Shown piece after piece: positions 31,347 through 52,520 of a DNA stretch of 64,000 nt. Made by a program: the position numbers and the translations under genes. The notes beneath the pieces are model-generated. The model was not told the origin of the DNA. It searched no databases and saw only the letters and a list, made by a program, of their open reading frames with translations. The DNA lies in the NCBI GenBank assembly GCA_002441245.1, contig DJVP01000008.1:106540-170539 (forward strand), given 5' to 3'. How positions within the stretch are numbered: the first letter of the stretch is position 1; each line of letters opens with the position of its first letter. This DNA comes from Candidatus Omnitrophica bacterium UBA6253. Its GTDB lineage: Bacteria > Omnitrophota > Gorgyraeia > Gygaellales > Profunditerraquicolaceae.

Positions 31347-31355
31347 GATATTTTC

Positions 31356-31826
31356 CTACAAATTAAAGAATAAGTAGCCATTCCAGTGCGCTCCGGTTAC
31401 TTCTTTAGCAATAGCCGTGAGGGTCTTATATGTTTTGCTGTTATATTCAAATCCTGTATCCAACACTTTAACTTGAAGTGAAATACCCTTGTATTTCTTA
31501 GTAATAACTGTACCTGGAATTGGTAATCTATTATCCCGGCTAAGGCATTTCTTCTTAGGGCAATTTTCAGTGGCGGCATTAGGTCGAAAAGCTTTGTTAT
31601 TGATCGGATCATATTGTTGGATCAAATGTTGGATTTTACTTTGGGTTTCAGCGGAAATTCCGCCATATTCGAGCTCCTGTATCTTGTAAGCGATTTTACG
31701 CCAGAGAAATACCTTATTGTTAGATGGAGCATTCTTACCATCAAAAACCTCTTCATACCTCTTCTGTAGTTTGTTGAGCGGCAACTCTTTTAGCACCATT
31801 ATTTCGGTTAGGGTATTTTCACTCAT
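31356..31826 (-). CDS. DUF2924-like recombinase-associated protein
   Basis: LQKRYEEVFG…IAYKIQELEYGG pattern. It sits immediately upstream of the serine recombinase, as is common for DUF2924. Confidence 0.55.
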   Translation of the reverse strand: MSENTLTEIMVLKELPLNKLQKRYEEVFDGKNAPSNNKVFLWRKIAYKIQELEYGGISAETQSKIQHLIQQYDPINNKAFRPNAATENCPKKKCLSRDNRLPIPGTVITKKYKGISLQVKVLDTGFEYNSKTYKTLTAIAKEVTGAHWNGYLFFNL

Positions 31827-31977
31827 ATTTATCTCCTCCCATTAGGACATATATGTCCATACAATTAGAGATAAGTCAAGTCAATTAGGGAGGTATCTTT
31901 AGATTGTTTAAGATATCAAAAGGGGGTATAATTATTTTAACTTTACATTCGGTAAAAATTCATTAGAAGTATCCTTT

Positions 31978-32844
31978 GTGAGTAAATTACTTTTTAAAGA
32001 GCAAAGTATGAAAAAATCGCACGATAGAGACTATTTTTATAAATATGTTACTGCTGATGTAGCAAAGAACATTCTTAATACACTTAAGGTGAGGTGTAGC
32101 TCTCCAGTTCTTTTTAATGACCCTTTTGATAGTCAAATAGAAATTTGGCACAATGCAGAAAGTAAAGAAGATTTTATAAAAAAGAGCACTAAAATTATCT
32201 GTAATGTTTTGCAACCATTGCTAAAGAATAGAGATACTGAGCAGAATCATCAGTTCGTCTATAACGAAATACTAAAAGACAAAGATTTTGTAGATCAGCG
32301 CTATGTAGCTTTTGAAAAAATTTATAAAAGTGTAAATGAACTGATATGTAGTCTTTTAAAAGAAGATAGAATTTTCTGCGTTTCTGAGACAAATGATAAC
32401 CTATTGATGTGGGCTCATTACACCGATAATCACAAGGGGGCAGTAATAAAATTAAAATGTATTCCAGAAAAAGATACGGCTCTTTGCGTAGCAAAACCAG
32501 TACTATATTCAACAAATATGCCTTTATTAAAAGTCGAAGAGTTATTTAACAGTCCACAACAAATATCGCGAAAGATATTAGATGAAATTCTTTTTACCAA
32601 AAGTTTAGATTGGCAGCATGAAAATGAATGGCGAGTAATCCTTATGAAACAACAAGATGGCTGTGATTTTGATATGCGAGGAATATTTGAAGAAGAGCTT
32701 GATACTATTTACTTGGGATGCCGCATATCAGAATCTGATAAAAAAGACATCGCAGAGATTGTACGTACAAAGAGAAAGAATGTAAGAATTTTTTGTGCGC
32801 GAAAAAATGACCATGAATTCAAGCTTGATTTTGAAGAATTATGA
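31978..32844 (+). CDS. DUF2971-like protein
   Basis: N-terminal YKY.…L...LRCSSP.LFNDPFD motif. Confidence 0.5.
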   Translation: MSKLLFKEQSMKKSHDRDYFYKYVTADVAKNILNTLKVRCSSPVLFNDPFDSQIEIWHNAESKEDFIKKSTKIICNVLQPLLKNRDTEQNHQFVYNEILKDKDFVDQRYVAFEKIYKSVNELICSLLKEDRIFCVSETNDNLLMWAHYTDNHKGAVIKLKCIPEKDTALCVAKPVLYSTNMPLLKVEELFNSPQQISRKILDEILFTKSLDWQHENEWRVILMKQQDGCDFDMRGIFEEELDTIYLGCRISESDKKDIAEIVRTKRKNVRIFCARKNDHEFKLDFEEL

Positions 32845-33701
32845 TAGAACCAACAGAAGAATGGTTAATAGCAATAAATGAAAAGTTTCGCAAAGCAGAT
32901 ATTCCTCCAAAAGGAAGACCATTCCTTGCCCTTGAGGCCTTTTCTAAAGAATTTAAGTGTAGCATTATTATACCGTCTGAGACAATAAATACTATTTTTG
33001 AATGGTTTTACAAGAATACCAAAGAGGGATCGCATAGTATGGGGCCTTTATATCGTGGCGTTTATTACTTTGATTCATGTTTTTGGCCTGTCTATATTTT
33101 AGATCAATTCGGACAATGTAAAATTAATGCTTTTGATTCTTTGCAAACCATGCCTATAAACTTTAAAGAGCAAATTAAAGCTGATAAGAAGCAATCGTGG
33201 GATTTCTTTTTATTATGGGTTAATTGTTTAGATTATGCTTGGGGATATGAAGATATTATCGTGAAAAAGAAATTTCAAGGCCTATCTTTAAACTTTATTA
33301 AAAGCGCAGATAAAGAATTACGAGCCGCCGCCTCTTTATTATTGCAAGAAACCCCCGAAGTTAAAGCAATTGAGAGTGCAAGGATGGCGGTAGAGATGTT
33401 TCTCAAGGCAGTGCTGATTATAGCGAATAACTGGGGCGAAGATGAGATAAAAAAGAAAATAGGTCACAATCTTGTTAGGGCCGCGCAAGAAGCGTTTAAT
33501 AGCACGCAGAGTCAGGAAATTAAAGCGATAGAAAAATATCTCTCGATTTACCCTGAGATTCACGAAAGATACTCCGGAAAGGATTGGAAAGCCAGAGACC
33601 TCTGGAAAGGATATTGTATTGTTCAAGCTGTTGCTGCGACTTTTACACGATTATATTCTGAGAGAGATGCAAGGCAGCAGGTTTTTCGAAAAGGAGATTA
33701 G
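32841..33701 (+). CDS. hypothetical protein (island cargo)
   Basis: ORF translationally coupled to the previous gene; no family recognised. Confidence 0.5.
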   Translation: MIEPTEEWLIAINEKFRKADIPPKGRPFLALEAFSKEFKCSIIIPSETINTIFEWFYKNTKEGSHSMGPLYRGVYYFDSCFWPVYILDQFGQCKINAFDSLQTMPINFKEQIKADKKQSWDFFLLWVNCLDYAWGYEDIIVKKKFQGLSLNFIKSADKELRAAASLLLQETPEVKAIESARMAVEMFLKAVLIIANNWGEDEIKKKIGHNLVRAAQEAFNSTQSQEIKAIEKYLSIYPEIHERYSGKDWKARDLWKGYCIVQAVAATFTRLYSERDARQQVFRKGD

Positions 33702-33747
33702 GTATATAAATCTAGGTTAAATAATATGTTAAAAGGGAGGTAGAAAG

Positions 33748-34074
33748 ATGTCAGGATTTAAAATGGAAGGTTTTGACGAATTTAATAAGAAGTTAAATAA
33801 TCTACAGCAAAATATTGAAAACCTCAAAGGTGAACAGGAGGTTTCATTCAATGAACTTTTTACGCAGGATTTTATGAAAAAGAATAGCCGCTTCAAATCT
33901 CTTGAGGACATGTTTAAACAAAGTGGTTTTGTTATTAATTCTCAAGAAGATTTTAAGAAAATACCAGATGAGGAATGGGGTAATTTTATCACTAGCAATA
34001 CAAAATTTAAGAATTGGGAAGAGATGTATGGTGCTGCTATAAATGAATGGTTAAAAATTAAGTTAGGTTTGTAA
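33748..34074 (+). CDS. hypothetical small acidic protein
   Basis: RBS GGGAGG present; 108 aa. Confidence 0.45.
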   Translation: MSGFKMEGFDEFNKKLNNLQQNIENLKGEQEVSFNELFTQDFMKKNSRFKSLEDMFKQSGFVINSQEDFKKIPDEEWGNFITSNTKFKNWEEMYGAAINEWLKIKLGL

Positions 34075-34215
34075 AATAGGTGATTTGTGGATGCAATACA
34101 AAACCCCAAATTTGTCGAAAGAATATAAAGAATTCTAAAAATGTATAAGAAAATATAAAAAAGCATAAAATTGTATAATCCTCGTCGATAAGCAAAAAAA
34201 TATTTATTTTGCCCC

Positions 34216-34244
34216 TTGAAATCTCAAGAAAAACTGTGTATACT
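34216..34244 (+). promoter_or_regulatory. near-consensus promoter TTGAAA-17-TATACT
   Basis: Seen directly, about 250 nt upstream of the ParB/methylase gene. Confidence 0.5.
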
Positions 34245-34249
34245 TTTAC

Positions 34250-34407
34250 TGTAATTTGATCTTTCTCTCGTATAGACTTAAGACTAAAACCACAACGGAA
34301 AGACTCTTGAATAACTAGACCGTTGGGTGTAGCTTGAGGAATTGATTTTCTCGGAGGCGGCTACTGATAGCTTTGTGACGGACACGGCTATCGGGGCCGC
34401 TTTTTTT
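34250..34407 (+). ncRNA. candidate small RNA / leader transcript (promoter to intrinsic terminator, ~150 nt)
   Basis: Bounded by the promoter at 34216-34244 and a strong terminator at 34357-34407. The terminator hairpin is GCGGC-tact-GATAGC…GCTATC-gggg-GCCGC, followed by TTTTTTT. No ORF lies between. Confidence 0.4.
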
Positions 34408-34500
34408 GTTTTTCGGAGGTAAAACCACAGAAAGGAGGTTCGATATTAGCATTGATTTTAAGAAAAAGCAAACTTAACCTATTAAAACAAGGAGATTAAC

Positions 34501-35766
34501 ATGAAAAGAATAAAGATGGTGATTGAAGAACTTAAATATGCACCCTACAACCCGCGCACTATGAGAAAAGCAGTCTTTGAAAGACTCAAAGAAAACATCA
34601 GGTCTTTTAAAGTCTACTCACCGCTTATCGTCAATACGCAGACTAATCATGTTGTTGGTGGTAACCAGCGCTTGCGGGCACTACGTGAGCTCGGCTATAA
34701 GGAGGTAGACGTAGTTTTGGTTGATCTTCCGCTCGATAAGGAGATGTCTCTCAATTTAGCTTTAAACAAGCTGGTTGGAGAATTTGACAATCCAGCTCTG
34801 CCGGTGATCTTTCAAGAGCTTATGAAAGACCAGGAGCTACTTAGTTTAAGCGGCTTTGAGCTCCCTGAGGTTTTTAGCCTCATAGACATGCACACCATGC
34901 ATCCTGATGAGGACTTTGATCTTGAGAAAGAGATTTCAGAGATTGAAAAACCCATAACCGCTCCAGGCGATCTGGTAGAGCTTGGGCCCCACAAAATAAT
35001 CTGCTCAGACACAGCCAAGAAGGATACCTTGGACAGGCTACTTGGTGATGAAAAAATTGCGCTTCTGCATATGGATCTACCATATGGTTGCGTTTATAAT
35101 TCTTGCAACCGGCCAAAGTCTCCTCAGAAGAGGAAACAAAAAGCTATGTGGAAGCCCATCGAAAATGATGATTTGGTAGGTGAAGAGTATTTAAAATGGT
35201 TCAGGGAAGTGGTTATAACGGCCAAGCCGTTTCTTATTGATGGCGCTCCGGGTTATTTCTGGGGTGGATTCCGTAACTTTGGCATGATGACGCAGGTTTT
35301 GGAGGAAGAAGGATTTTACGTTGCCAATGTGATAACAGGGGTTAAGCCTAGAGCCTGTCCGGGATTCGGGGATTATAACTTTGCCTCGGAATTCTTGTTG
35401 TATGCATGGCTTAAGGGCAACGGCCAGCATCGCTGGTTTGGTCCCAAAAATGAGACCAATGTCTGGGAATTTAACCGCGATGAAGCTTCTGGACGCCTGC
35501 ACCCTACGGCAAAACCTGTATCTCTTGCCCGCCGCATCCTGGCTAACAGCAGTCAAAAAAATAACATCGTATTTGATGGTTGTACTGGTGCCGGATTTAA
35601 CCTTATCGCCTGCCAACAAATGGGAAGAATATTCCGGGGATGCGAGATTGAACCTTTGTATCTGGATATCTGCATTAAAAGGTACATCCGCGCTTTCGGC
35701 ATGAATTCGGTTTCACCGGAAGTGAGGCAAAAGTATTTTGGAGGAGGCAACCATGGCAAAAAATAA
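34501..35766 (+). CDS. ParB-like nuclease N-domain fused to N6/N4 DNA methyltransferase
   Basis: N-terminal ParB-N-like segment. LHMDLPYG (DPPY-like motif IV) and the C-terminal HPTAKP motif are characteristic of N4/N6 methylases. Confidence 0.7.
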   Translation: MKRIKMVIEELKYAPYNPRTMRKAVFERLKENIRSFKVYSPLIVNTQTNHVVGGNQRLRALRELGYKEVDVVLVDLPLDKEMSLNLALNKLVGEFDNPALPVIFQELMKDQELLSLSGFELPEVFSLIDMHTMHPDEDFDLEKEISEIEKPITAPGDLVELGPHKIICSDTAKKDTLDRLLGDEKIALLHMDLPYGCVYNSCNRPKSPQKRKQKAMWKPIENDDLVGEEYLKWFREVVITAKPFLIDGAPGYFWGGFRNFGMMTQVLEEEGFYVANVITGVKPRACPGFGDYNFASEFLLYAWLKGNGQHRWFGPKNETNVWEFNRDEASGRLHPTAKPVSLARRILANSSQKNNIVFDGCTGAGFNLIACQQMGRIFRGCEIEPLYLDICIKRYIRAFGMNSVSPEVRQKYFGGGNHGKK

Positions 35767-36394
35767 AAATCCCTCTGAAAAACCCACAGCCTTCTACATC
35801 CAGGGCATTCAGAGTGGCACAGTTAGGGTTTCGAGCCTTCCTGTCGAAACAATTGAGGAAATTGTTGCTGTTCTGTACGCTGAAGGGTCTTCTGTGTCTC
35901 AGATAGCCCAACTCTTAAATAAATCAGATCGCACTGTGTACAGATATCTTGAAGAAATCCGCAGGAAGAACGCTCTTACGCCAAGCTTAAAACAGGCCCA
36001 GGAGTTTATGGGCGAACTGGTTCAAAAGGCAAGGTCAAGCCATTCATATCTTATGCGGCTTGCCCGTTCAAAGGACGGTTCAATTTCCGAGAAAACCCAG
36101 GCTGAATTTGCCGCCTGGAGAATAATCAAGGAGCTAACCGAGAAACTTCAGAGTCTCGGACTCTTGCCGCTAAAAGAGCAGGCTCTCACAGGGGATTTCT
36201 TTCACCACTTTTCTACCTCGGATGGACAGGCGATGTGTGATGAGATAAAGAATAGCATCAAGGATATTGAAGTCATTGCCAGCCAAACCGGCGGAATCGC
36301 ACCAGATGATCAGGAGAAGATAAAGAAAATCCAGTCAGAAATTGAAAATTTTGAGAAGGGAGTAACCCAGGAACAGGAGGATAAAAATGAATAA
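35738..36394 (+). CDS. terminase small-subunit-like DNA-binding protein (HTH)
   Basis: HTH VSQIAQLLNKSDRTVYRYLEE. It lies immediately upstream of terL and overlaps it. Confidence 0.5.
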   Translation: MEEATMAKNKNPSEKPTAFYIQGIQSGTVRVSSLPVETIEEIVAVLYAEGSSVSQIAQLLNKSDRTVYRYLEEIRRKNALTPSLKQAQEFMGELVQKARSSHSYLMRLARSKDGSISEKTQAEFAAWRIIKELTEKLQSLGLLPLKEQALTGDFFHHFSTSDGQAMCDEIKNSIKDIEVIASQTGGIAPDDQEKIKKIQSEIENFEKGVTQEQEDKNE

Positions 36395-38054
36395 TACCCA
36401 ACTATATCAAATAAAAAACGAGGCAATAAAGTTACGGCGCTATTTTGGAAAGAACTTTGAGTCTTTTAGAAAATATTATTTTCCACTTTACCATTCTATT
36501 CCCGATGCGCCATTCCACCGGGATATAGGAGCGTTATTAGCGGAAGCATCCAGGAAGCGCGGGTTTCGTATTGCCTTAGCTGCTCCGCGTAACAGTGCTA
36601 AAAGCACCATTGTGTCCCTTGAGTTTGTAGCTTATTGTATTTGCTACCACTTGGAAGAGTTTGTAGTGATTATTTCCAACACTAAGGAACAGGCTGAGAG
36701 TTTCCTAACCAATATCAAGTTTGAGCTTGAGACTAACCCTCGCCTTAAGGAGGATTTTCCTGATGTTTGCGAAATAGGCGAAAAACCAAAGCCGCCACGC
36801 TGGAGACAGGATGACATTATCACCAAAAATGGCATCGAAGTTCTTGCGCTTGGCTATAACCAGCAGATCAGGAGCCGTAAGTACAAACAATCACGGCCGA
36901 GCCTGATCATTCTTGATGACCTTGAGGCGGGTAATGCTATTCAGTCTGCCGAAAACTTCGAAAGACTTTACGATTATCTTACCCGGTCAGTATTGAAATC
37001 CGGCACAAACGCAACCAATGTAGTCTTTCTTGGGACAATCCACAATTACGGTTCACTCTTGGCGCAATTTACAAGTTCCGACGCACATCCCGGCTGGGAA
37101 AAGCGCATCTATCGTTCGATCATATCGTGGTCTGTGCATCCTGAGCTGTGGGAGAAATGGGAAAGGATATATAGTTGCCAAGATGCCTTTGAAGGGAACG
37201 AAGGGCCTGAAGCGGCGCTAAAGTTCTTTGAGCAAAACAAAGCCCCAATGCTTGAGGGGACTCAAGTTCTTTGGGAAACAAAGTACAGTTATTATGAGCT
37301 TATGGTTATGCGTTTAGAGGAAGGAACAGCAAGTTTTGACAGTGAAATGCAGAATGAGCCAGTAAATCCCAGGGATCGGATATTTGATGTTGATAGTTAC
37401 GGTTATTTAGAGGATAAACATTCTAGTACAGAAAATCTACTGGTAAATTTAGGCGAAAAGAAGAGGATATATGGCGGTTGCGACCCTAGTCTTGGAAAAG
37501 AGAGCAAAAGGAGCGATTATGCTGCTATTGTAACCGTAGTAAAAGACACTGAAAAAGGAACTCTTTATGTTGTTGACGCGGACGTGGCGAAGCGTAAACC
37601 CGATAACATAATTGAGACGATTATGTCGTACCATAAGATACGCGGTTACATGAAGTTCGGGGTTGAGACGAACCAGTATCAGGAGTTTCTTGCTACTGAG
37701 TTGAAAAGGCGTAGTGAGTTAGCGCAGATTTATGTGCCAGTTGTGGGTATTACGAATACCACGGATAAGCTGGGGCGCTTTCAATCGCTTCAGCCTCTCT
37801 TTGCCAGTGGGGTAATCCAACTTAGCAGGAGACTCCATATTCTGCTTGAACAAATGAAGCATTGTCCGAAAGGCGCGCACGATGATGCCTTGGATGCTTT
37901 GTATCTAGCTGTAAAATTGGCTCTGGAGGACAATCACTTTCAGTTTTGGTTTGCCGGTGATGGCAATAAACCACCTTATAATCCCGATATATATCCGGAT
38001 GCAACCGGAAGAACACCTTATGGCTGGTATTCTTGGCACAGGCGATCTTACTAG
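36387..38054 (+). CDS. terL: phage terminase large subunit
   Basis: ATPase Walker-A-like AAPRNSAKST and Walker B IILDDLE. C-terminal RNaseH-like nuclease region (GCDPS…DYAAIV…VDAD). Confidence 0.8.
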   Translation: MNNTQLYQIKNEAIKLRRYFGKNFESFRKYYFPLYHSIPDAPFHRDIGALLAEASRKRGFRIALAAPRNSAKSTIVSLEFVAYCICYHLEEFVVIISNTKEQAESFLTNIKFELETNPRLKEDFPDVCEIGEKPKPPRWRQDDIITKNGIEVLALGYNQQIRSRKYKQSRPSLIILDDLEAGNAIQSAENFERLYDYLTRSVLKSGTNATNVVFLGTIHNYGSLLAQFTSSDAHPGWEKRIYRSIISWSVHPELWEKWERIYSCQDAFEGNEGPEAALKFFEQNKAPMLEGTQVLWETKYSYYELMVMRLEEGTASFDSEMQNEPVNPRDRIFDVDSYGYLEDKHSSTENLLVNLGEKKRIYGGCDPSLGKESKRSDYAAIVTVVKDTEKGTLYVVDADVAKRKPDNIIETIMSYHKIRGYMKFGVETNQYQEFLATELKRRSELAQIYVPVVGITNTTDKLGRFQSLQPLFASGVIQLSRRLHILLEQMKHCPKGAHDDALDALYLAVKLALEDNHFQFWFAGDGNKPPYNPDIYPDATGRTPYGWYSWHRRSY

Positions 38055-38066
38055 GTCAACTCAGTG

Positions 38067-38109
38067 TTAGAATAAGCGCCACGATTGTTAACCGTGGCGC
38101 TTATTCTAA
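38067..38109. terminator. bidirectional terminator: 17-bp perfect stem ttagaataagcgccacg / cgtggcgcttattctaa, loop attgttaac
   Basis: Seen directly, between convergent terL (+) and the XRE regulator (-). Confidence 0.65.
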
Positions 38110-38119
38110 ATAGGTAATT

Positions 38120-38335
38120 TTATTTGAAATTCAACAACTTTGGTAGGGAGGTATTGAACGCTTTGGCTAATTTTTGTAAGGTGTTTAAGGTGGGCGAAGA
38201 AGGCCTCTTGCTCTCAAGACGCTGAATATATTTGTATTCTAACTCAGCCAAATAAGCAAGTTCCTCCTGGGTTATCTTCTTTTTTCTGCGTAGTTCTTTT
38301 AAGCGTTTCCCAAATGCGATATTGATATTTTCCAT
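38120..38335 (-). CDS. XRE-family helix-turn-helix transcriptional regulator
   Basis: ITQEELAYLAELEYKYIQRLE HTH; 71 aa. Divergent from the defence-like operon. Confidence 0.8.
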   Translation of the reverse strand: MENINIAFGKRLKELRRKKKITQEELAYLAELEYKYIQRLESKRPSSPTLNTLQKLAKAFNTSLPKLLNFK

Positions 38336-38365
38336 TGCTATAATCTTCTCACAATATTCTATATC

Positions 38366-38394
38366 TTGACACCTACGATAGTGGGTGTTATAAC
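38366..38394 (+). promoter_or_regulatory. promoter TTGACA-17-TATAAC with embedded inverted repeat ACACC-N10-GGTGT (candidate XRE operator)
   Basis: Seen directly in the divergent intergenic region. Confidence 0.5.
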
Positions 38395-38461
38395 TATTTT
38401 TAGACTTGCTATTTGCTATGATTTATGGCAATGATTACCATGAGAGGAACTTTTACCGGAG

Positions 38462-39514: not shown

Positions 39515-39525
39515 GTATAATTAGA

Positions 39526-39553
39526 TTGACAAGGTATCGTTTAGCGCTACAAT
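39526..39553 (+). promoter_or_regulatory. near-consensus promoter TTGACA-16-TACAAT upstream of MBL/E2-E1-JAB/patatin operon
   Basis: Seen directly. Confidence 0.5.
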
Positions 39554-39622
39554 TATTACAGTGCTAAATTTTGGTAAGTGGTGCAGTTTGAAGGGGGAAC
39601 CTCCACTTTAAAATAAGAAAAA

Positions 39623-39661
39623 CCTTCGTTTGCTTAATAAGCGGACGGAGGTTTTTTGTTT
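39623..39661 (+). terminator. intrinsic terminator-like hairpin inside the operon leader (possible attenuator)
   Basis: 11-bp stem ccuucguuugc/gcggacggagg (with G-U pairs), loop uuaauaa, then UUUUUUGUUU. It sits between the promoter and the ATG at 39691. Confidence 0.45.
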
Positions 39662-39690
39662 ATCGGACTTAACTGAAAAAGGAGATTAAT

Positions 39691-40797
39691 ATGCATAAAC
39701 TAACATTTTACCCCTTAGGGAATGCGGATTGTTGTTTAATTGATCTAGAGAACAAAAAGAAGATTTTGTTTGATTATGCGAATTGTAAGAATCCAGATGA
39801 TGATGAGGATAAGCGGGTAGATCTAGTTTCTGCTCTTAAATCTGATCTCGAGAAAGATAAAAGAGATTATTATGATGTTGTTGCTTTCACCCATGCGGAT
39901 GATGACCATATAGGAAAGTTTTCGGAATTTTTCTATCTTCAGCATGCTGAAAAATATCAAGAAAAAGGAAGAATTAAGATTAATGATTTATGGGTGCCAG
40001 CGGCCTTGATAATTGAAGAGGGGTTGGAGGGTGAAGCTGCGATACTAAGGGCGGAGGCTAGATATAGGTTAAAAGAAGGAAAAAATATCATGGTATTTTC
40101 ACGACCAGATCGTCTTAAGGATTGGCTTGAGAAGGAAGGGATAAAACCCGAAGAAAGAGAAAGTCTTATTACAGATGCAGGACGACTTGTTCCAGGTTTT
40201 GATAAATTGACAGAAGGAGTAGAGTTCTTTGTACATTCTCCTTTTGCTGTCCGACAGGAAGATAAGCTGATCGATCGCAATGAAGCCTCTTTAATAATGC
40301 AGGCAGTTTTCAGCTATGACAATGTCGATACCAGGCTTTTTCTAAGCAATGATGGTACTTATGAAATTCTGTCTGATATTGTTAACATAACTAGGGGGCA
40401 CAAAAGGGCTGATAGATTGGGATGGGATATTATGAAGATACCCCATCATTGTAGTTATTTATCCTTAAGTGATGAAAAAGGTAAAGAAATAACTGAACCT
40501 GTAGAAGAAGTTAAATTTTTATTTGATCAGGGAGGAGAGAAGGGGTTGCTTGTTTCTACTAGTGATATTATTCCCGATACAGATGAAGAGCAGCCACCAC
40601 ATAAACAGGCAGCTAGTTATTATAAGAAAAGGGCTGATGAAATTAAAGGAGAATTTGTTGTTACTATGGAACATCCTAACAAGGTAAACCCCCAACCTAT
40701 TGTTATCAACGTAGACAGTTATGGCGCTACCTTAAGAAAATCAATTGCTGTTGGTGGTTTTGATGTTATCAATCGATCTGCTCATCGCGCAGGTTAA
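39691..40797 (+). CDS. ComEC-type metallo-beta-lactamase-fold hydrolase (putative nuclease)
   Basis: GNADCCLIDL followed by THADDDHIG (HxDxDH variant, as in the ComEC C-terminal MBL domain). The C-terminus ends …SAHRAG. Confidence 0.65.
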   Translation: MHKLTFYPLGNADCCLIDLENKKKILFDYANCKNPDDDEDKRVDLVSALKSDLEKDKRDYYDVVAFTHADDDHIGKFSEFFYLQHAEKYQEKGRIKINDLWVPAALIIEEGLEGEAAILRAEARYRLKEGKNIMVFSRPDRLKDWLEKEGIKPEERESLITDAGRLVPGFDKLTEGVEFFVHSPFAVRQEDKLIDRNEASLIMQAVFSYDNVDTRLFLSNDGTYEILSDIVNITRGHKRADRLGWDIMKIPHHCSYLSLSDEKGKEITEPVEEVKFLFDQGGEKGLLVSTSDIIPDTDEEQPPHKQAASYYKKRADEIKGEFVVTMEHPNKVNPQPIVINVDSYGATLRKSIAVGGFDVINRSAHRAG

Positions 40798-40809
40798 TTT
40801 ATTAAGATT

Positions 40810-43038
40810 ATGGATTTTCCTCTACCATCGAAGATAGTTAACGCAAACGATCTTGTTATTCCTAGGGCGCGCGATATTGCTTTTTCCATGCAATCTGGAG
40901 TTTTGGCTTATGTTAAACTTCTAGAATGTCGTTCTCTTAACGCAGGATTTGAGAGCATTATTTTTGATGTAGAAGTTGAGCTCGGACAAAAGAATAACGT
41001 ATATGCAATCGAAAAAATAGAAAAAATAGCTATAATCTTTGATCCAAGGGATAGCTCTGTTCCGCTGGTTATTTCTTTGCGCAATAATTTTCCTAAAGCG
41101 CCGCATACAACTCTCGGAGATGAACATTTTCCTGCCAGCCTATGTCTTTATGACCAGCCTTTTAGCGAAATTAAGATTTATCTTACTCCTACAAGGCTAA
41201 TAGAGCGAATTCGTCAATGGCTTGCCGATACAGCAAGAGGAAAGCTGCACGGAGAAGATCAGCCTCTCGAACCCCTGTTTCTTGAAGCAAATAAACAGCT
41301 TATTATTCCATTTGATCTATTTGATTGTTTTAATCCCGATAATCCTCCCAAATTAGAAGTTTATATAACAGAGTTTAACAAGACGCATACTTTTATCGCT
41401 GAGAAAGAGGGAAATGGTTCAGTCAGAAAAAAGGCTAATTTTACCGCGGTTATCTTTCAATGTTCTCCTCAAGTTCATGGCGCTATTTCAAATATACCTA
41501 GAAACCTATACTCACTTCATCAATATACTTCTTCTCTGGGGTTTGATTTATTAAAGAAACTTAGGTCTATTTTACAGAAGTGGCATATTGAAAAGAAACT
41601 TTCTAGTATTCAGACTAATTATCTTATGTTGATAATCGCTTTCCCTAAAACAAGAAGTAAAGGAAAAGCGATAGAAGCTACAGATGTATGGGGATTTTTA
41701 TTGGAAGCGGATATTAAGGGCATCGGTATCGAATTGGGTTTATGGGAAGACCTCAATGGTGTTTTAGGAATGCTTTTCCCTGTTGATGAAAATAAAAAAG
41801 GAGAAGCAATTCTTCTGGACATGTGTCGTACTATGTATTCTTTTTCTCGAGAAATGGCCGCCGGACAAAATGGCCTGACAATAATTAACAAAAACAAAAT
41901 TTGCTTAATTGGCGTTGGTTCTCTTGGATCTCAAGTTTTTCTAAATTTAATAAGAGCAGGATTTGGGGAGTGGACATTAATTGATAATGATTTATTTTTA
42001 CCACACAATCTTGCTCGACACATCCTTGATAGGAATGCTATAGGATATGCAAAGGCACAATACTTAGAATGGATAGCAAACAATATGATCGATGGGGAAC
42101 CTATAGCGAGGGCCATCCTGAAGGATGTTCTAAAGACAGATGATTACGCGGATGATTTAAAAATAGCGCTATCTCAGGCAGATGTTATTCTTGATTGTTC
42201 TGCGTCATCCGCTGTTGCTAGGCTTATTGCTCGTGATTTGTCTTCGACAGCCCGAAGGATGTCGTTATTCTTTACTCCATTAGGGAACGATTCTGTATTA
42301 TTGGCAGAGGATTCTAAACGTGAAATTACTTTAGATCATGTCGAAATGCAATATTATAGACTTCTTGTTTATGAAAAAGATTTAGAGGGACATTTATCCG
42401 TGCCTGGTATTCAACTGCGGTACGGGAATTCGTGCCGTGATATTAATACCTCTTTGTCTCAGGAACTTGCTGCTTTACATTCCGCGATAGGGGCTAGAGC
42501 TTTTAGGAATATTTTCTTAGAAACAAGTGCAAAAATCTTAATTTGGAGGACAAATCCAGCTGACTTAAGTGTTAAAGCATTAGCTTTTTCTCCAGGGAAA
42601 CTATCTGAAATCAAGACTTTAAATTGGACTATTTGTGTTGATCCGTGGGTAGTCGAGAAGATTCTTGCTGCTAGAATTTCTAAGCTTCCCAATGAAACCG
42701 GAGGAATATTAGTCGGTTCATTTGATTTACAAAGAAGAGTTGCATATATTCTTGACACGGTATTATCTCCTCCAGATAGTAAAGAATGGCCTACTGTATA
42801 TATCCGCGGATGTCAAGGGTTAGCTAATAGGATGAAAGAAATAGGTGATATAACTATGGGAAGATTAGAATATATGGGTGAGTGGCATGCCCATACTGGA
42901 TCATGCTGTTCCCCTAGTGAAGAGGACAAGCTCGCTTTTTCATGGCTTTCAAATTGGCGTCTACTTGATGGGCTTCCTGCTGTAATGTTAATTGCTGCTG
43001 AAGGCAAATATGCTATTTACATCGAAGCTATGAACTAG
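40810..43038 (+). CDS. E2-like / E1 (ThiF) / JAB(JAMM) triple-domain ubiquitin-like conjugation enzyme (Cap2+Cap3-like fusion)
   Basis: Central ThiF Rossmann motif LIGVGSLGSQVFLNLIRAGFGEWTLIDND…NLARH. C-terminal JAMM motif E…GEWHAHTGSCCSPSEED (HxH-x7-S-x2-D), preceded by ETGGILVGS. The N-terminal ~300 aa has candidate E2 Cys in HFPASLCLYD. Confidence 0.75.
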   Translation: MDFPLPSKIVNANDLVIPRARDIAFSMQSGVLAYVKLLECRSLNAGFESIIFDVEVELGQKNNVYAIEKIEKIAIIFDPRDSSVPLVISLRNNFPKAPHTTLGDEHFPASLCLYDQPFSEIKIYLTPTRLIERIRQWLADTARGKLHGEDQPLEPLFLEANKQLIIPFDLFDCFNPDNPPKLEVYITEFNKTHTFIAEKEGNGSVRKKANFTAVIFQCSPQVHGAISNIPRNLYSLHQYTSSLGFDLLKKLRSILQKWHIEKKLSSIQTNYLMLIIAFPKTRSKGKAIEATDVWGFLLEADIKGIGIELGLWEDLNGVLGMLFPVDENKKGEAILLDMCRTMYSFSREMAAGQNGLTIINKNKICLIGVGSLGSQVFLNLIRAGFGEWTLIDNDLFLPHNLARHILDRNAIGYAKAQYLEWIANNMIDGEPIARAILKDVLKTDDYADDLKIALSQADVILDCSASSAVARLIARDLSSTARRMSLFFTPLGNDSVLLAEDSKREITLDHVEMQYYRLLVYEKDLEGHLSVPGIQLRYGNSCRDINTSLSQELAALHSAIGARAFRNIFLETSAKILIWRTNPADLSVKALAFSPGKLSEIKTLNWTICVDPWVVEKILAARISKLPNETGGILVGSFDLQRRVAYILDTVLSPPDSKEWPTVYIRGCQGLANRMKEIGDITMGRLEYMGEWHAHTGSCCSPSEEDKLAFSWLSNWRLLDGLPAVMLIAAEGKYAIYIEAMN

Positions 43039-43065
43039 CAAAGAAAAGTTGCAATAGGCGGAATA

Positions 43066-44097
43066 ATGGGAGACCAAATGAACAAAAGAGGAATTGGTTT
43101 AGCTCTCTCTGGTGGAGGGAGTAGAGCGATAGCTTTTCATTATGGGGTTTTGGAAGCTATGCATGAACTCGGAATTGACCAGAAAATAGATGTAGTTTCT
43201 GCCATATCAGGTGGAGCTGTTATTGGCGCATTATGGAATTTGTACTCTAAAGACTGGTCATGTTTTTCATCAAAGATAGAACTAATTCTCAGGGATGGGC
43301 TAGAAACCTCAATATTAAGCAGATTAATACATCCAAAATTAATTTTTGCAACGATATGTCAGTTGGGGGTTGATTGTGATATTATGGCAGATGTTTTGGA
43401 CAAAAAGGTGTTAGATTATATTAAACTTAATGAGATTCCAGAAAAGCCGTTATTGATTTTAAATGCCACCGAACTAAAAACCGGAACTAATTTCAAATTT
43501 TCCAAGACTATTTGTGGTTCATATAGATCATCAGGTTGTGTATCTGGTTTACGTTTAAGCCAAGCGGTAGCTTGTTCAGCAGCTTATCCGTTAGTATTTG
43601 CTGTAAAAAAACTTATTTTAGATTCCGCTGATGATGTTTATTTGACGGATGGTGGAGCTTATGATTGTATTGGAGCTAATGCTTTAATGCCAGATAAAGG
43701 CGAAACGTCTATTCTAGTGCAAAATTGTGAGACGATTATTATTAGCGATGCTTCATTCCCATACATTGAGAATCGGCCAAGATTAACTAGGAGTATTGTA
43801 GATGGACTTTTAGCTTCTTATGGGGCATCATCAAACAGAAACAGAGCACTTATCTATAATAAACTTTATATGCTAAATAAAAGTGGCGAAATTCCCTTTC
43901 TGGGGACCATAAAAATGGATAGCAAACATCCTGATTTAACTACTGGCTGGAATAAGAAAGAGTTAGAATTGATAAATAACTATAAGACTAATTTTAAACC
44001 GGTTACCGGTAATGCATTGGTAAGTTTAAAAAATCGCGGTAAGGAATCGGCAAAAATCATTATTACTAAGTATCTCAGCCATCTTTTAAATAATTAG
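43066..44097 (+). CDS. patatin-like phospholipase (CapE-like effector)
   Basis: Oxyanion motif LSGGGSRAIAF, nucleophile region SAISGGA and DGG catalytic Asp motif LTDGGAYD. Confidence 0.75.
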   Translation: MGDQMNKRGIGLALSGGGSRAIAFHYGVLEAMHELGIDQKIDVVSAISGGAVIGALWNLYSKDWSCFSSKIELILRDGLETSILSRLIHPKLIFATICQLGVDCDIMADVLDKKVLDYIKLNEIPEKPLLILNATELKTGTNFKFSKTICGSYRSSGCVSGLRLSQAVACSAAYPLVFAVKKLILDSADDVYLTDGGAYDCIGANALMPDKGETSILVQNCETIIISDASFPYIENRPRLTRSIVDGLLASYGASSNRNRALIYNKLYMLNKSGEIPFLGTIKMDSKHPDLTTGWNKKELELINNYKTNFKPVTGNALVSLKNRGKESAKIIITKYLSHLLNN

Positions 44098-44106
44098 GAG
44101 GCAGAC

Positions 44107-45054
44107 ATGTCGTTTATTAAAATACATATGCTTGATGTTGGGAAAGCAGATTCTATTATTGTCGAGTTAGCTGATGCTTTTGGAAATACTACTACTTTAT
44201 TAATTGATGGTGGAAAAAAGGAAAATTCCAAAAAAATTATCAGCTATTTTAATGAAATGAAGAAATTTCCCGAATGCATTATTTGTACTCACTTAGATCG
44301 GGATCACGTTGGTGGTTTATCTTCTATTGTAGAAGAATTTAAAGAAAAGATTAGATGTATTTGGACTCATGTTCCGGCAAGACACAACAAAACTCTTAAA
44401 AGTGCTCTTTATGAAAAGATCAAGGTAGACGGAAGATCGAGAATCATTTTTTCTTCTATTGAAGATCTCGAAGGTTTTGTGAATATCGCTGAAAAATATG
44501 GAATTCCTATTTTTGAACCGTTTTCGGATTATTCCGATGAAAAAATTAAGAAATTTTGTTCGGTTTTTGGAATTAGGATATTAAGCCCTTCGCGAGAGTT
44601 TTATAATGGTCTTTTAGAAAAGATGAAAGAAGATTTTGGAATTATTAGCAGTAGGTCAATCAGAGACGCTATTGAATATGTGTCTGCGGCAACTTCTGAC
44701 CCATGTTCTGTAATTGGCATAGATGGTGCTGATACTCCTGAAAATGAATCTTCTGTAGTTTTTGAAATTAACATTTTTGCTAAGAAATTTTTGTTTACTG
44801 GAGACGCTGGAATTTTAGCTTTTGATAAGATTCGACACGATCTTAAAGAAGTATACTGGTTAAAAGTCCCACATCATGGAAGCATAAAGAACCTAGACGG
44901 GGATTTGGTAGAAAGATTGAGACCCAAAGTTGCATTTATTTCTGCCGATGGGTCTTCTCATCATCCAGATAGTTCACTTTTAGCTTGCCTTGAAAAACAT
45001 CAAGTTAAGGTCAGAAGTACTAATTCTGAAGGCAATATAACAATAGAAGTATAA
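44107..45054 (+). CDS. second ComEC-type metallo-beta-lactamase-fold hydrolase
   Basis: VGKADSIIVEL followed by THLDRDHVGG (HxDxDH); later PHHGS motif. A paralog of the 39691 gene. Confidence 0.65.
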   Translation: MSFIKIHMLDVGKADSIIVELADAFGNTTTLLIDGGKKENSKKIISYFNEMKKFPECIICTHLDRDHVGGLSSIVEEFKEKIRCIWTHVPARHNKTLKSALYEKIKVDGRSRIIFSSIEDLEGFVNIAEKYGIPIFEPFSDYSDEKIKKFCSVFGIRILSPSREFYNGLLEKMKEDFGIISSRSIRDAIEYVSAATSDPCSVIGIDGADTPENESSVVFEINIFAKKFLFTGDAGILAFDKIRHDLKEVYWLKVPHHGSIKNLDGDLVERLRPKVAFISADGSSHHPDSSLLACLEKHQVKVRSTNSEGNITIEV

Positions 45055-45163
45055 TAGATTTGAAATATAGCTATCTAGAAGAAAGTCATGTGGACTTTTT
45101 CTCCACAAGACAAATGAAATAAAGATTCTTCGTTTATTTTTATTTAAAACGAAAGGAATTACG

Positions 45164-45703: not shown

Positions 45704-45712
45704 CTGCTTTCT

Positions 45713-46502: not shown

Positions 46503-47381
46503 ATGCCTAAAAAACGCCAAGCCTTTAAACATAATATCGTTGCGATAATCTATGATTTTGATGGGACTCTAACTGAGAAGCCCATGCAAGAATATACCGT
46601 CCTTCCAAAGATTGGCATACCTGCAAAGAAATTCTGGGATACAGTGAACGAAGAAACAAAAAAGACGAAAGGCGAGCAGATAGTTACTTACATGCGATTG
46701 ATGCTGAAATACGCCGATAATAAAGACATAGCTATCAAGCCTGCAGATTTTCGTAAGCTCGCAAAAAACATAAAATATTATCCTGGAGTAGAAAAATTCT
46801 TTGAAAGGATCAATAAATTTGTTGATTCCTTATCAAACGGTAAGGTTGAATTAAGACATTATATTATTTCTGCAGGATTGAAAGAAATCCTTAACGGTAT
46901 CCCATTTAAAAATAAATTTCATAATATCTTTGCTTCTGAATATCATTATGATAAGTATTACCATGCTGATTTTCCCAAAATTATAGTGAATGATACCCTA
47001 AAAACACAGTTTATTTTTAGAATTAATAAAGGAAGAGAAAAAATGCATGAAAGCATAAATACACATATGTCTCATCTTGATCGCGCCATTCCTTTCCGAA
47101 ATATGTTGTATATTGGAGATGGAGAAAGTGATGTTCCCTGTATGACAGTTATAAAGAAAGAGGGGGGATATGCTATAGCCGTTTGTAAAAAAGGAAGTTC
47201 CAAGGGGATAAATAAGGCAAAAGATTTATTAAAGGCAGAGAGAGTAGATTTTATAACTAGAGCAGATTATAGTAAAAATAGCGAATTAGAAAAAATAGTT
47301 AAGATTATTTTGCGTAATATTGTTGAGGGAATAACATTTAGGAAAGAAATTTTTAAACAATATCTTACTTATATAGCATAA
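46503..47381 (+). CDS. HAD-superfamily hydrolase/phosphatase
   Basis: Motif I IYDFDGTLT and motif IV IGDGESD. Confidence 0.7.
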   Translation: MPKKRQAFKHNIVAIIYDFDGTLTEKPMQEYTVLPKIGIPAKKFWDTVNEETKKTKGEQIVTYMRLMLKYADNKDIAIKPADFRKLAKNIKYYPGVEKFFERINKFVDSLSNGKVELRHYIISAGLKEILNGIPFKNKFHNIFASEYHYDKYYHADFPKIIVNDTLKTQFIFRINKGREKMHESINTHMSHLDRAIPFRNMLYIGDGESDVPCMTVIKKEGGYAIAVCKKGSSKGINKAKDLLKAERVDFITRADYSKNSELEKIVKIILRNIVEGITFRKEIFKQYLTYIA

Positions 47382-48471: not shown

Positions 48472-49860
48472 ATGACCAAGATTATTATATGTCTTTTTAT
48501 TACTGTAGGTACGTTAACATTTATTGTTAGCGATGCCCCATCTATTTATGGGCAAACATATTCGGATACTGGTTATGGGGATTATCCTTGCCCAAGATGT
48601 GGAAAATACACACCCTATACTCCGACCAGCCATCCTGCGTACTGTAAATGGTGCGGCGCACCTCTTTTTGGTTCATCCGAAAGTTCTAACTCATCTGAAA
48701 ATTATGAAAATAGTTACATTTCTTATGTCCTGAGAAATAAGATATTGGGACTTGATATTTTTGATGTGCAAAGTGATTTGCAAACCTCGCGCAATGATGA
48801 AATGGTTGCACGGCGTTCAATGGAAGAGTGGAAAGAGGCAGCAGAGAGTTCATCAAAATTATTAGCTCAACGTAAGAGTGCCTTGTCAAAGAAAGATTCT
48901 AAGGATCGGGAAGAAATTTCAAACGAAATGGATCGTAATAGGAAGCTGCTATCAAGATTGTCTGCCCTACAAAAGCTTTTAGAAGGTTTAACCGTGGATA
49001 CTGCTTCGCTTGTACCGGGCACCGAGATAAGATTTCTTTGCGCTCCTAGATTAGATGATGAGATGATTTCTAAAGGAATAAATCCCGTTTTTTTTGTTAA
49101 TCCCTCAATATGCAAGCAATTCTTCCGTTATCGGGATATCCTTCGAAAGAGAATAGAAGAAAATACTAAACTAATGCATCAGTTTTATTGGGATATTGAT
49201 ATACAACAAAGAGATATGCTTTACGCTCGTATAAATAAAATACAACTCTTTCGTGATTTTGGGTCAATTGCATTAAAGATGTTAACAGACCCTATGGCTG
49301 AATTAGAAAAATATGGCTTTCCTCCAGAAAAGCTGAAGCAATTAAATGAGGCTTTTATCTCAGCGAACCTTATATTTTCCGAAGTCGGAACTATTGCAGC
49401 ACCAAATGATAAAGAAGCGAAAGACAAGGTTCGCGATTGTCTCAAGCATATGATTAATGCCGGAATAGTTTTGAAATCTGGTAAGTCTTCACCTGAATTG
49501 GAAAAAATAAATAATGCAGCGTGGGGTCTTCTAAAGCTTGATGCTGATTCTAAGGGGCTTATTTTTCAAGATGACAAAAAAGTTATGAAGGTGATTGAGG
49601 ATAAGCTTGACATGGGGGGAATCTTCTACCGGCCTATTTATATAGTCTCCGGTTTTGTTGGCTTAACTCGATTACGAGAAGACTATGTTGATTTAAGCTA
49701 TCAATCAGAATATATAGAAAAAACGATGGGGCGTGATTTGGATTGTCTGAAGCTTACTAGACGGTTGTTATCAGATGATCAGTCTTACATGGACGAGGTT
49801 GAAAGGATGATTGGTTTATGTGACTATGCAAAATGTGGCGTAGAGGAAACTACTAAATGA
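48472..49860 (+). CDS. membrane-anchored double zinc-ribbon protein with coiled-coil/helical C-terminal domain
   Basis: N-terminal TM segment, then CPRCG…CKWCG. Confidence 0.5.
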   Translation: MTKIIICLFITVGTLTFIVSDAPSIYGQTYSDTGYGDYPCPRCGKYTPYTPTSHPAYCKWCGAPLFGSSESSNSSENYENSYISYVLRNKILGLDIFDVQSDLQTSRNDEMVARRSMEEWKEAAESSSKLLAQRKSALSKKDSKDREEISNEMDRNRKLLSRLSALQKLLEGLTVDTASLVPGTEIRFLCAPRLDDEMISKGINPVFFVNPSICKQFFRYRDILRKRIEENTKLMHQFYWDIDIQQRDMLYARINKIQLFRDFGSIALKMLTDPMAELEKYGFPPEKLKQLNEAFISANLIFSEVGTIAAPNDKEAKDKVRDCLKHMINAGIVLKSGKSSPELEKINNAAWGLLKLDADSKGLIFQDDKKVMKVIEDKLDMGGIFYRPIYIVSGFVGLTRLREDYVDLSYQSEYIEKTMGRDLDCLKLTRRLLSDDQSYMDEVERMIGLCDYAKCGVEETTK

Positions 49861-52520
49861 AGAAGACTCTCTTAATGATCCTCCGATATGGCATATTGAT
49901 GGCAATGGTGATGGTTAACTCTGGTTGTGCCATTGCTCGTTATATTATGAATACTCAAAGGATAAATTCACAGGATAGGAAGAATCAGCTATATTCTGAA
50001 GCATATCAGTATCGGCAGCAATATGAAAATAATCAGAAAGAATTGCGTTTAATCGATCATGACGCTGCTTTGCCATCCACAAAGATTATGTATCATAATG
50101 AGAATGTTGTTCTAGAGGATAATATACATAAATTAGAGGATAAGATAGATAAGTTACAGATTAAATTGGCTGAGGCTGAACGAATGAGGGGGAATGGTCT
50201 TAGTATTTTTGGCAAGACGTTATCTGAAGAAGGTTTTAAGAAAGTCTTATCTGAGCGAGTGTTTTTGAACAATCTAGAGAAAGAGTGTGAAAAAAAGCAA
50301 AGAGAACTTTCTGCAAGGTCATCAAATCCGGAAGAGCTCGCTCGTTACGAAGAGATTATTCGTTGCGAAGCGTTGGTGGACTTGATTGTGGAAGCGTTAG
50401 ATACATTCGAGATTCCTTTGAAGGAAAAAGATCTTAAGCGATCTGTTTTAAATAATCAAGGATGTCAAGACTTAAGTCGGTTATACGATTGCTATGAGAA
50501 TGTTAGGAATCTTTCAGCCTATGCAGAAGGGGGAAGTGAATTTGCTAATCTCTATAAGGCGGCCAAGGATTTACTAGAGCCTAGTAAACAGACAGAGGTA
50601 GTTTTAATCCAGGGGGAACTCTTGCAGGCCGTAGCCGATCTTTCTGCCGCCGGCGAAAAAATTTGCCATAAGTTAAAACTATTATTAAGTACTCAAAAAG
50701 TAGAGAGAAGCGATAATAACGGGATGCTAGATATTAATCCTATTCCTGCCACGATGGTTTTGGAGAGCGCGGCTGGTGAAGAAAGCTCGCTTTGGGCTTT
50801 ACGGTATCGGTTGACAATACAAAATATTATGATGTCTATGGCATGGTGTTTAGGCAAAGATTGGTCAGCTGATTCTTATCTTCACAAGCAGGCAAGCAAA
50901 ATCCAGGAAGCCAAATTGGCGAATCGAAAGATTATTGAAGGGTATCATGAAAAAATACAGGCTAATGTTCGACCGTTAGCATTGACAACAAGATTTTTAA
51001 GACAACCATCAGGCGTAGCATATGGGGGTCGGTTCAAATATTTTAATGGCTCCGTTTATGTTTACGGTATAAGCGGTGTAAAAAATGAATATGAATTTAC
51101 TAAAATAATTGCAAAGTATAATATTCTTTCGAAGAATAAAGGCGTCTCGCCGATGTGGATTGCAAAGTTATCTGAATTAGATCGGTCATGGGGCATTGAT
51201 TGTATTAGCGTTGCGCATGATGGTTTATATTTGGCGACTCTAGTCGATACTGGTGGCCATAAATATGACAAGTGGTTGTTAGCAAAGTATCCTTTTGGTA
51301 CTAAATTTAATTGTTCCGTTAATAAGGAATGGTCTCGTTATATTCTGGAATATCGAAAAACTTTAGCATATTCTAATATTAATAGTAGTCTAATGGGTTT
51401 AATGGTTGTTAATGAGAATAATATTGATTATGTCTATGTGGTTGGAGGCAAACAGGGTTCATTTTGTATTTCGAAAGTTGCTGGTGATGGTACGGTTGTA
51501 TGGGAGCGTATGAATCCAGAGGGTTCAGGATATGGTATTGCGATTATGGATGGAGCTGTTTATACGGGGGGTGTTTCTTCTTGTCACCCTTATTTGCAAA
51601 AATATGATACCAATGGTTCACTGATTTGGGCACGCACGAGCGATCCTTTAGGATATTATGAGAGCTTGATAGTTATGGGGAAAACGATTTATGCTGTAGG
51701 CAAGAATGGTCTTGCTAAATCCGATTTATTAATAGAAAAATGGGATGAAAATGGCAATAAAATCTGGTCCCGTATATATGATTGTAATTATAATTACAAT
51801 CATTCTGGGGGAGCAATAAATGTAAATGGACATTTGTTTATTTTGTCTTCTATGGAATCAGTGATAATAGGTGGTAAAATATTTCTTATAGAGATTGATC
51901 CTGAAATTGGGGAAATACTTTCTGTAACATCTTGCGGTGAAGGTATCGCTACGCTGGATGCAGGTGATGAACACCTCTACATTATGCTAACTAGGAATGA
52001 CGGTAAAACGATAATCTTAGAATATCCCTTACAGGCTTCGCTGGGCAAGAACGATGAAAAGAATTCCCCAATCCAGAAATATAAGCGTAATGAGAGTATG
52101 TTGGTTAAATCTGATCAGAATAATATCTTCACAGAATCTACTAATTTAGGATCCATTTTATCCACCGTTACTAAAGGATTAATCTCATCTACAGAAAGCG
52201 ACGTATTTTATGATACTAATCTGAATATGGAAGAAACGGCAAATGAATATATTTTTAAGATGAATATTGTAGGCTTGGACAAAAATAAAGTTCGTGTGAA
52301 AATTAATGGAAGTTCAATTACTGTAACTGGAAACTATTCTAGTAAGACAGAACAAAAAAATCCGTGGAGTATTTATAGTTCACAGACAACCAGTTCTTTT
52401 ACGAAAACAGTTTCATTACCGGAAAATGCCAATCTCAAGAATATTAAATCGGAAACCAAAGGCGATACATATATTATTCATATTGGTAAAAAAGTCATTG
52501 GGAGTTTTCGGCAGATATAA
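49857..52520 (+). CDS. lipoprotein with coiled coil, beta-propeller (PQQ-like repeats) and C-terminal Hsp20/alpha-crystallin-like domain
   Basis: Lipobox NSGC. Repeated …G.V.W / …G..IW.R. strands (VVWERM, SLIWART, NKIWSRIY). The C-terminus FKMNIVGLDKNKVRVKINGSSITVTG is Hsp20-like. Confidence 0.55.
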   Translation: MKKTLLMILRYGILMAMVMVNSGCAIARYIMNTQRINSQDRKNQLYSEAYQYRQQYENNQKELRLIDHDAALPSTKIMYHNENVVLEDNIHKLEDKIDKLQIKLAEAERMRGNGLSIFGKTLSEEGFKKVLSERVFLNNLEKECEKKQRELSARSSNPEELARYEEIIRCEALVDLIVEALDTFEIPLKEKDLKRSVLNNQGCQDLSRLYDCYENVRNLSAYAEGGSEFANLYKAAKDLLEPSKQTEVVLIQGELLQAVADLSAAGEKICHKLKLLLSTQKVERSDNNGMLDINPIPATMVLESAAGEESSLWALRYRLTIQNIMMSMAWCLGKDWSADSYLHKQASKIQEAKLANRKIIEGYHEKIQANVRPLALTTRFLRQPSGVAYGGRFKYFNGSVYVYGISGVKNEYEFTKIIAKYNILSKNKGVSPMWIAKLSELDRSWGIDCISVAHDGLYLATLVDTGGHKYDKWLLAKYPFGTKFNCSVNKEWSRYILEYRKTLAYSNINSSLMGLMVVNENNIDYVYVVGGKQGSFCISKVAGDGTVVWERMNPEGSGYGIAIMDGAVYTGGVSSCHPYLQKYDTNGSLIWARTSDPLGYYESLIVMGKTIYAVGKNGLAKSDLLIEKWDENGNKIWSRIYDCNYNYNHSGGAINVNGHLFILSSMESVIIGGKIFLIEIDPEIGEILSVTSCGEGIATLDAGDEHLYIMLTRNDGKTIILEYPLQASLGKNDEKNSPIQKYKRNESMLVKSDQNNIFTESTNLGSILSTVTKGLISSTESDVFYDTNLNMEETANEYIFKMNIVGLDKNKVRVKINGSSITVTGNYSSKTEQKNPWSIYSSQTTSSFTKTVSLPENANLKNIKSETKGDTYIIHIGKKVIGSFRQI

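Follow-up and report, generated by a model that had tools for sequence, protein, structure and literature searches.

The operon type in which a protein with E2-like, E1 and JAB domains is encoded together with a metallo-beta-lactamase (MBL)-fold enzyme was described in 2006 by Iyer, Burroughs and Aravind as type 6a (Table 1, row 6a; PMC1779556), and the name of the 6A-MBL system traces to that row. According to the same description, the operon usually has two genes. Later papers cite 6A-MBL as a phage defence that has been validated and is a relative of Type II CBASS (anti-phage signalling based on cyclic oligonucleotides), and they count it among the known jumbo-phage defences of Pseudomonas aeruginosa, naming van den Berg et al. 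2024 as the source of the validation. For Type II CBASS, it has been reported that Cap2 conjugates the disordered C-terminus of its CD-NTase (cGAS) (10.1101/2022.03.31.486616). Here we describe a locus of this kind in a stretch of 64,000 nucleotides (nt), called the window below, from Candidatus Omnitrophica bacterium UBA6253 (assembly GCA_002441245.1, contig DJVP01000008.1, positions 106,540 to 170,539 of the forward strand). With a probability of about 85%, the gene at 40810..43038 on the + strand encodes Cap2_3, the E2-E1-JAB protein of a 6A-MBL anti-phage system whose partner MBL enzyme is encoded upstream, and its mechanism would be analogous to that of Cap2 and Cap3.

The 6A-MBL assignment follows from both adjacent genes scoring above their NCBIfam equivalog cutoffs and from three Pfam domains scoring above their gathering thresholds. 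The Cap2_3 gene is a single unbroken open reading frame (ORF) of 742 amino acids (aa). Its product scores 588.5 bits against NF058523 ("anti-phage 6A-MBL system cap2_3 protein"; cutoff 320, residues 62-728 covered), while the product of 39691..40797 scores 409.8 bits against NF058524 ("anti-phage 6A-MBL system MBL-fold protein"; cutoff 220). The features by which 6A-MBL is recognised, namely the E2-E1-JAB protein (three Pfam domains and NF058523), the adjoining specialised MBL-fold gene and intact E2, E1 and JAMM residues, were all found.

From the N-terminus, Cap2_3 begins with the E2-like domain (residues 1-170; 40810..41319), where Pfam Prok-E2_A matches residues 55-169 with 73.4 bits (gathering cutoff 25, E = 1.9e-20). 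Then comes a linker domain that separates E2 from E1 (residues 171-345; 41320..41844; boundaries approximate), which is folded and beta-rich in an AlphaFold2 (AF2) model and lies within the Foldseek alignment to Cap2 and Atg7. The ThiF-type E1 adenylation domain (residues 346-600; 41845..42609) is matched by Pfam ThiF at residues 348-474 (55.3 bits, gathering cutoff 28.1, E = 7e-15), and in a phmmer search it matched Cap2 (7tsq/7to3) with E = 1e-10. The JAB/JAMM metallopeptidase domain comprises residues 601-742, with the stop codon after them (42610..43038). Pfam Prok-JAB matches residues 615-711 with 33.9 bits (gathering cutoff 25), the PADLOC JAB models match this C-terminal domain at E = 7e-20, and the NCBIfam Cap3 model matches it at E = 3e-7 with a score under the model cutoff. 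All four segments are on the + strand. The NCBI entry identical to Cap2_3, from a Candidatus Omnitrophica metagenome-assembled genome, is named "ThiF family adenylyltransferase".

Conservation of the active sites was evaluated in an alignment of Cap2_3 with 20 homologues of 39-66% identity. In the E2 domain, H99 and C112 (SLCLY; codon 41143..41145) are invariant. The original prediction, made from the DNA letters and their translations, had named a lone candidate catalytic Cys in an LCLYD context; C112 is indeed present in that context (SLCLYD), but it is not the sole cysteine of the N-terminal region, which also contains C40, and it is the only invariant one. The invariant residues of the E1 domain are G368, G370, G373, D392, D394, N400, R403, H404, K415 and D462. 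Those of the JAB domain are E629, H693, H695, S703 and D706. Accordingly, the motifs quoted in that prediction stand: GVGSLGSQ (G368/G370/G373), LIDND (D392/D394), NLARH (N400/R403/H404) and ETGG (E629), as well as the JAMM segment HAHTGSCCSPSEED, which holds H693, H695, S703 and D706. When compared with the family consensus, Cap2_3 and its closest relatives share a one-residue deletion after the JAMM HxH, and this gives them the canonical HxHx7Sx2D spacing. For the E1 catalytic Cys loop, in which no residue had been named earlier, we found the invariant C542 (SCRD; codon 42433..42435) inside a conserved R-Y-x3-C-x-D motif, and this is probably the E1 catalytic cysteine. Since the N-terminal region is E2-like by profile and all the catalytic residues, including those for adenylation, are intact, the doubts that had been attached to the prediction, a non-E2 N-terminus and an inactive ThiF fold, fall away. 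On the strength of the conserved catalytic residues, the reading of Cap2_3 as an inactive pseudo-enzyme was likewise rejected.

The AF2 model was built from the homologue alignment and has a mean predicted local distance difference test (pLDDT) score of 82.5. Its top PDB match is the full-length Cap2 of Enterobacter cloacae (7to3_A, E = 8e-25, 638 aligned columns in Foldseek), and the next matches are crystal structures of the Cap2 E1 domain and then yeast Atg7-Atg10. The fold order of E2, linker and E1 is that of Cap2 (7TO3); over the whole length about 15% of the sequence is identical to Cap2, and within the E1 domain about 22%. The loops of lowest confidence are residues 105-107, just ahead of C112, and residues 536-542, which hold C542 and have pLDDT below 50. 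Low confidence ahead of C112 is expected of a flexible loop bearing a catalytic Cys. In Cap2 (10.1101/2022.03.31.486616), an extended hairpin and a crossover loop bear the catalytic cysteines C109 and C548, and the low-confidence loops of C112 and C542 fit this published placement, so that both proteins appear to carry their catalytic Cys on flexible loops. The profile searches, the conserved residues and the Cap2-like model agree that E2-like, ThiF-type E1 and JAMM domains are joined in one polypeptide, as had been proposed. The accompanying idea, that conjugation and deconjugation are coupled within one enzyme, is reasonable and agrees with the published view. Eukaryotic Atg7 with Atg3 or Atg10, the second-best structural match after Cap2, shares a homodimeric non-canonical E1 whose N-terminal or linker domain recruits the E2, but it works as separate polypeptides on ubiquitin-like protein (Ubl) substrates (Atg8, Atg12) and has no fused peptidase.

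The partner gene, which the original prediction did not mention, is located at 39691..40797 on the + strand, 12 nt upstream of the Cap2_3 gene and on the same strand. It encodes a 368-aa MBL-fold enzyme with a ComEC-like metallo-hydrolase body and the variant metal motif H68-x-D-x-D72-H73, H182, H252-H253-C254 and H304. The genomic context was surveyed in 80 loci from different species (L001-L080), taken from the genomes, at least 538 in number, in which a relative occurs; all counts of neighbours, accessory genes and tree positions below refer to these loci. Of these, 77 have an MBL homologue directly upstream of the Cap2_3 gene and on its strand, and the other three are truncated by contig ends or disrupted. 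The MBL protein is also better conserved among the relatives than the ligase, with identities of 56-86%. As a side observation, the protein search returned the exact Cap2_3 (100%) but not the exact MBL protein (best match 86%), which may be an effect of the prefilter or of gene calling.

The last 16 residues of the MBL protein (353-368), ending in ...SAHRAG, are predicted to be disordered. Across the 69 loci used for the tail counts, a (P)R-[AV]-G motif is conserved, with R366 and G368 invariant in the alignment. It forms the exact C-terminus in 47 of these loci, as in the window protein, while in the remaining 22 it is followed by 2-7 further residues (L001, where the tail reads ...PRAGGTNVY, L015-L017, L020, L023, L025, L029 and others). 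The combination of a conserved R-x-G, disorder and short extensions is hard to explain unless the C-terminus of the MBL protein is its reactive end, and an R-A-G tail is what C-terminal conjugation, as for CD-NTases in CBASS, would predict. The short extensions past R-A-G point to proteolytic trimming before activation, presumably by the fused JAB domain. From this tail and the analogy with Cap2, the MBL protein is probably the substrate of Cap2_3, conjugated via Gly368.

A mechanism can be proposed on the model of Cap2, which works on a disordered C-terminus, that of its CD-NTase. The flexible tail of the MBL protein, ending in R-A-Gly368, would enter the ThiF-type adenylation site of Cap2_3, where its terminal glycine would be adenylated by a site composed of G368/G370/G373, D392, R403, K415 and D462 of the ligase. 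The glycine would then pass as a thioester onto Cys542 of the E1 loop and onto Cys112 of the E2 domain, and would finally be ligated to a target amine, by which the hydrolase may be primed or localised during phage infection. The fused JAMM peptidase (E629, H693, H695, S703, D706) could take the conjugates off again, and where the MBL protein has 2-7 residues past the glycine, its role would extend to trimming the tail, in the manner of BilC on BilA. If so, the substrate would be, as in Type II CBASS, not a Ubl but an enzyme whose disordered C-terminal tail has a small residue at its end, and here too a JAB peptidase would reverse the conjugation. The tail motif itself is different, being R-A-G here and G-R-F-A in E. 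cloacae CdnD (10.1101/2022.03.31.486616).

Several points weigh against this interpretation of the locus. For the conjugation of the MBL protein, the evidence here is the conserved tail, and in the literature it is a single discussion sentence. The defence role of 6A-MBL is taken here from citing papers and from the NCBIfam name, and phage defence by the window locus itself we infer from family membership. Also, the equivalence of Cys542 to Cap2 C548 is suggested by position and loop flexibility and not by residue-level superposition.

We now consider the other explanations, beginning with one that is compatible with the 6A-MBL assignment. Two further genes follow Cap2_3 on the same strand. 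A 343-aa patatin-like phospholipase (43066..44097, +; Pfam Patatin, E = 9e-14) starts 27 nt downstream of Cap2_3, and a 315-aa second MBL-fold protein that is ComEC/LmuA/Avs1a-like (44107..45054, +; Pfam Lactamase_B, E = 8e-11) starts 9 nt after the patatin gene. In PADLOC the latter scores 122.7 bits against LmuA and 106 bits against PDC-M48B. These are probably accessory genes of the window operon, with the patatin as an effector. The locus could thus be an extended four-gene system, in which the core is combined with a patatin and a second MBL as exchangeable effectors, and the first MBL serves as a sensor or priming enzyme. In favour of this, the four genes lie on one strand with spacings of 12, 27 and 9 nt.

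The flanking ORFs of the 80 loci were clustered, and neighbours were counted up to a distance of 4 kb from the core. In 58 loci (about 70%) one or more of four recurrent neighbours are present, which also speaks for the extended system. A protein of about 250 aa with several hydrophobic segments, a membrane protein, is near the core in 29 of the 80 loci, a second MBL homologue in 24, and a hydrophobic (membrane) protein of about 170 aa in 5. The patatin clade is found in 20, in 14 of which it is directly downstream on the same strand, and it keeps the oxyanion, serine and aspartate motifs (SGGGxR, [ST]xSGG and DGG), so the proposed effector retains its catalytic motifs. An IrrE/ImmA-type peptidase is encoded upstream in 25 loci, and the window's order of core, patatin and second MBL also appears in L048 and L057. 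The accessory types are scattered over a neighbour-joining tree built from the ligase, and even sisters differ in them (L040/L047, L001/L002 and L005/L007); this looks like modular exchange.

On the other hand, 22 of the 80 loci have none of the accessory genes, the 2006 description speaks of usually two genes and NCBIfam models two components only. Moreover, defence genes cluster in islands, and therefore such neighbours can be independent systems. The accessory genes may be either exchangeable effectors of an extended system or independent neighbours in a defence island, and the four-gene interpretation stays tentative, with odds clearly short of even. The accessory genes are not mentioned in PMC1779556 or the other texts covered, a coverage to which van den Berg et al. 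2024 does not belong.

Another explanation keeps the enzyme but changes its substrate: Cap2_3 could modify something other than the MBL protein, for instance a protein of the host or of the phage, or a Ubl whose gene lies outside the locus, and the MBL enzyme would then be just a co-regulated effector. Separate Ubl proteins are used by Bil and Bub, which gives this explanation a precedent. It is improbable because no Ubl-sized ORF is present in or beside the operon, and because it leaves the invariant R-x-G, the disordered MBL tail and the extensions in 22 of 69 loci unexplained. A Bil/Bub-type pathway as such was rejected: it needs a Ubl gene, and apart from the enzymes described here the operon and its immediate flanks hold no candidate ORF of 60 aa or more, and there is no match to a Ubl family in Pfam or NCBIfam. 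Like the window locus, Bil (BilABCD) and Bub use E1, E2 and JAB-type activities and are antiviral or presumed antiviral; their peptidase can pre-process a C-terminal extension to expose Gly, as is proposed here. Those pathways differ in that they employ a beta-grasp Ubl of their own and that E1 and E2 are separate proteins belonging to other families, with Ser/oxyester chemistry in the case of Bub, whereas the window locus is without a Ubl gene and its E2 belongs to Prok-E2_A (Cap2/Atg3/Atg10-like).

It is less likely still, and contradicted by the data, that the gene is a Cap2-Cap3 fusion of a Type II CBASS that lost its CD-NTase gene or has it at another site. A Cap2-like E2-E1 and a Cap3-like JAB were both found, though fused, the nearest solved structure is Cap2, and PADLOC 2023 matches only its CBASS 'E1-E2' and 'JAB' models, the best being PDLC00827 (E = 1e-27), which spans E1 and JAB. 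We note that PADLOC-DB 2.0.0 is without a 6A-MBL model and files Cap2_3 under CBASS E1-E2/JAB, which is misleading if used alone. Against CBASS, the 6A-MBL equivalog cutoff is exceeded and the partner is the 6A-MBL enzyme, which is present in 77 of 80 relatives; and no CD-NTase was found by Pfam, PADLOC or NCBIfam among the ORFs from 34501 to 52520. In Type II CBASS, Cap3 is a protein of its own and the partner is a CD-NTase; the window locus has its JAB domain in cis on Cap2_3, an MBL-fold hydrolase as partner and no nucleotide second-messenger synthase. Finally, the public name and weak matches to ThiF/MoeB models might suggest that Cap2_3 serves cofactor biosynthesis as a sulfur-carrier adenylyltransferase of the ThiF/MoeB type. 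This is contradicted and hardly credible, because the equivalog scores are far under the cutoffs (best TIGR02356, 44.1 bits against 275), because Cap2_3 contains an E2 and a JAB domain, because neither ThiS nor MoaD nor any other biosynthetic gene is close by, and because it lies in a mobile-element setting beside defence genes.

Relatives of Cap2_3 are common. A protein search with Cap2_3 gave 378 significant matches, and nearly all of the best 120 have the same three Pfam domains. In a scan of one genome per species, relatives were found in at least 538 genomes. A near full-length relative of Cap2_3 is carried by 207 plasmids, including one of Gluconobacter oxydans 621H, a species in the 2006 table (PMC1779556). 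The window locus has the 6A-MBL core order of MBL and then E2-E1-JAB, passes both equivalog cutoffs, possesses the catalytic residues and lies on a mobile element. Its differences are the uncultured Omnitrophica-type host, the JAMM deletion common to the closest relatives, and a core that runs without a real gap into the patatin and second MBL genes, in contrast to the two genes usually described.

The surroundings of the operon change within the window. The left part is ordinary chromosome, with genes for EF-G, UvrD, RNase Y and DXP synthase (DXS), and from roughly 28 kb on the GC content falls from about 0.44 to about 0.35. A large serine recombinase is encoded at 29703..31346 on the - strand, and after it, within 29703..38335, there are a ParB-N6/N4 methylase fusion, small and large terminase-like genes and an XRE regulator. 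Taken together, the recombinase, the terminase-like genes and the fall in GC content indicate that the 6A-MBL locus is part of a defence island or of an integrated element derived from a phage.

Between 38462 and 39514, directly upstream of the operon, there is a 350-aa ORF with no Pfam or NCBIfam match and a weak match to PADLOC PDC-S02 (E = 2e-4). The 176-nt gap between it and the MBL gene contains a promoter-like site at 39526..39553 on the + strand (TTGACA, a 16 nt spacer and TACAAT; 11 of 12 matches). This is possibly the operon promoter, for which its position is a hint; in a scan of the region for sigma-70 promoters and terminators, the overall matches were no better than those in shuffled sequence. 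Beyond the four-gene cluster are an HTH/zinc-ribbon protein and an HAD-IB family protein (46503..47381). The latter matches the PADLOC candidate PDC-S34 over its full length with 317.6 bits, so that the island may hold another defence gene, separate from the 6A-MBL locus. Two long ORFs were also recorded in the window. The 2692-aa ORF at 4025..12103 has a calcineurin-like phosphoesterase match at residues 1540-1763 as its sole domain, and the 887-aa ORF at 49857..52520 has only an Hsp20/alpha-crystallin domain at residues 791-868, an unusual size for an Hsp20 protein.

The triple fusion is not new. It is a routine, catalogued member of 6A-MBL, and by itself it adds one more copy to a family that hundreds of species and hundreds of plasmids carry. 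The locus is nevertheless useful as a clean example, with intact active sites and a partner that has a conserved disordered R-A-G tail. The sole mildly new element is the recurrence of swappable accessory genes near the core. On a more doubtful proposal, which we hold as a minority view, the two-gene core would be the sensing or priming half of the system, and the third and fourth genes interchangeable effectors that attack membranes or DNA, in the way that CBASS swaps its effectors. If this is true, conjugation of the first MBL protein would control a downstream effector rather than be the killing step itself, and the swappable accessory genes could help to explain what the poorly understood 6A-MBL system does downstream of conjugation.

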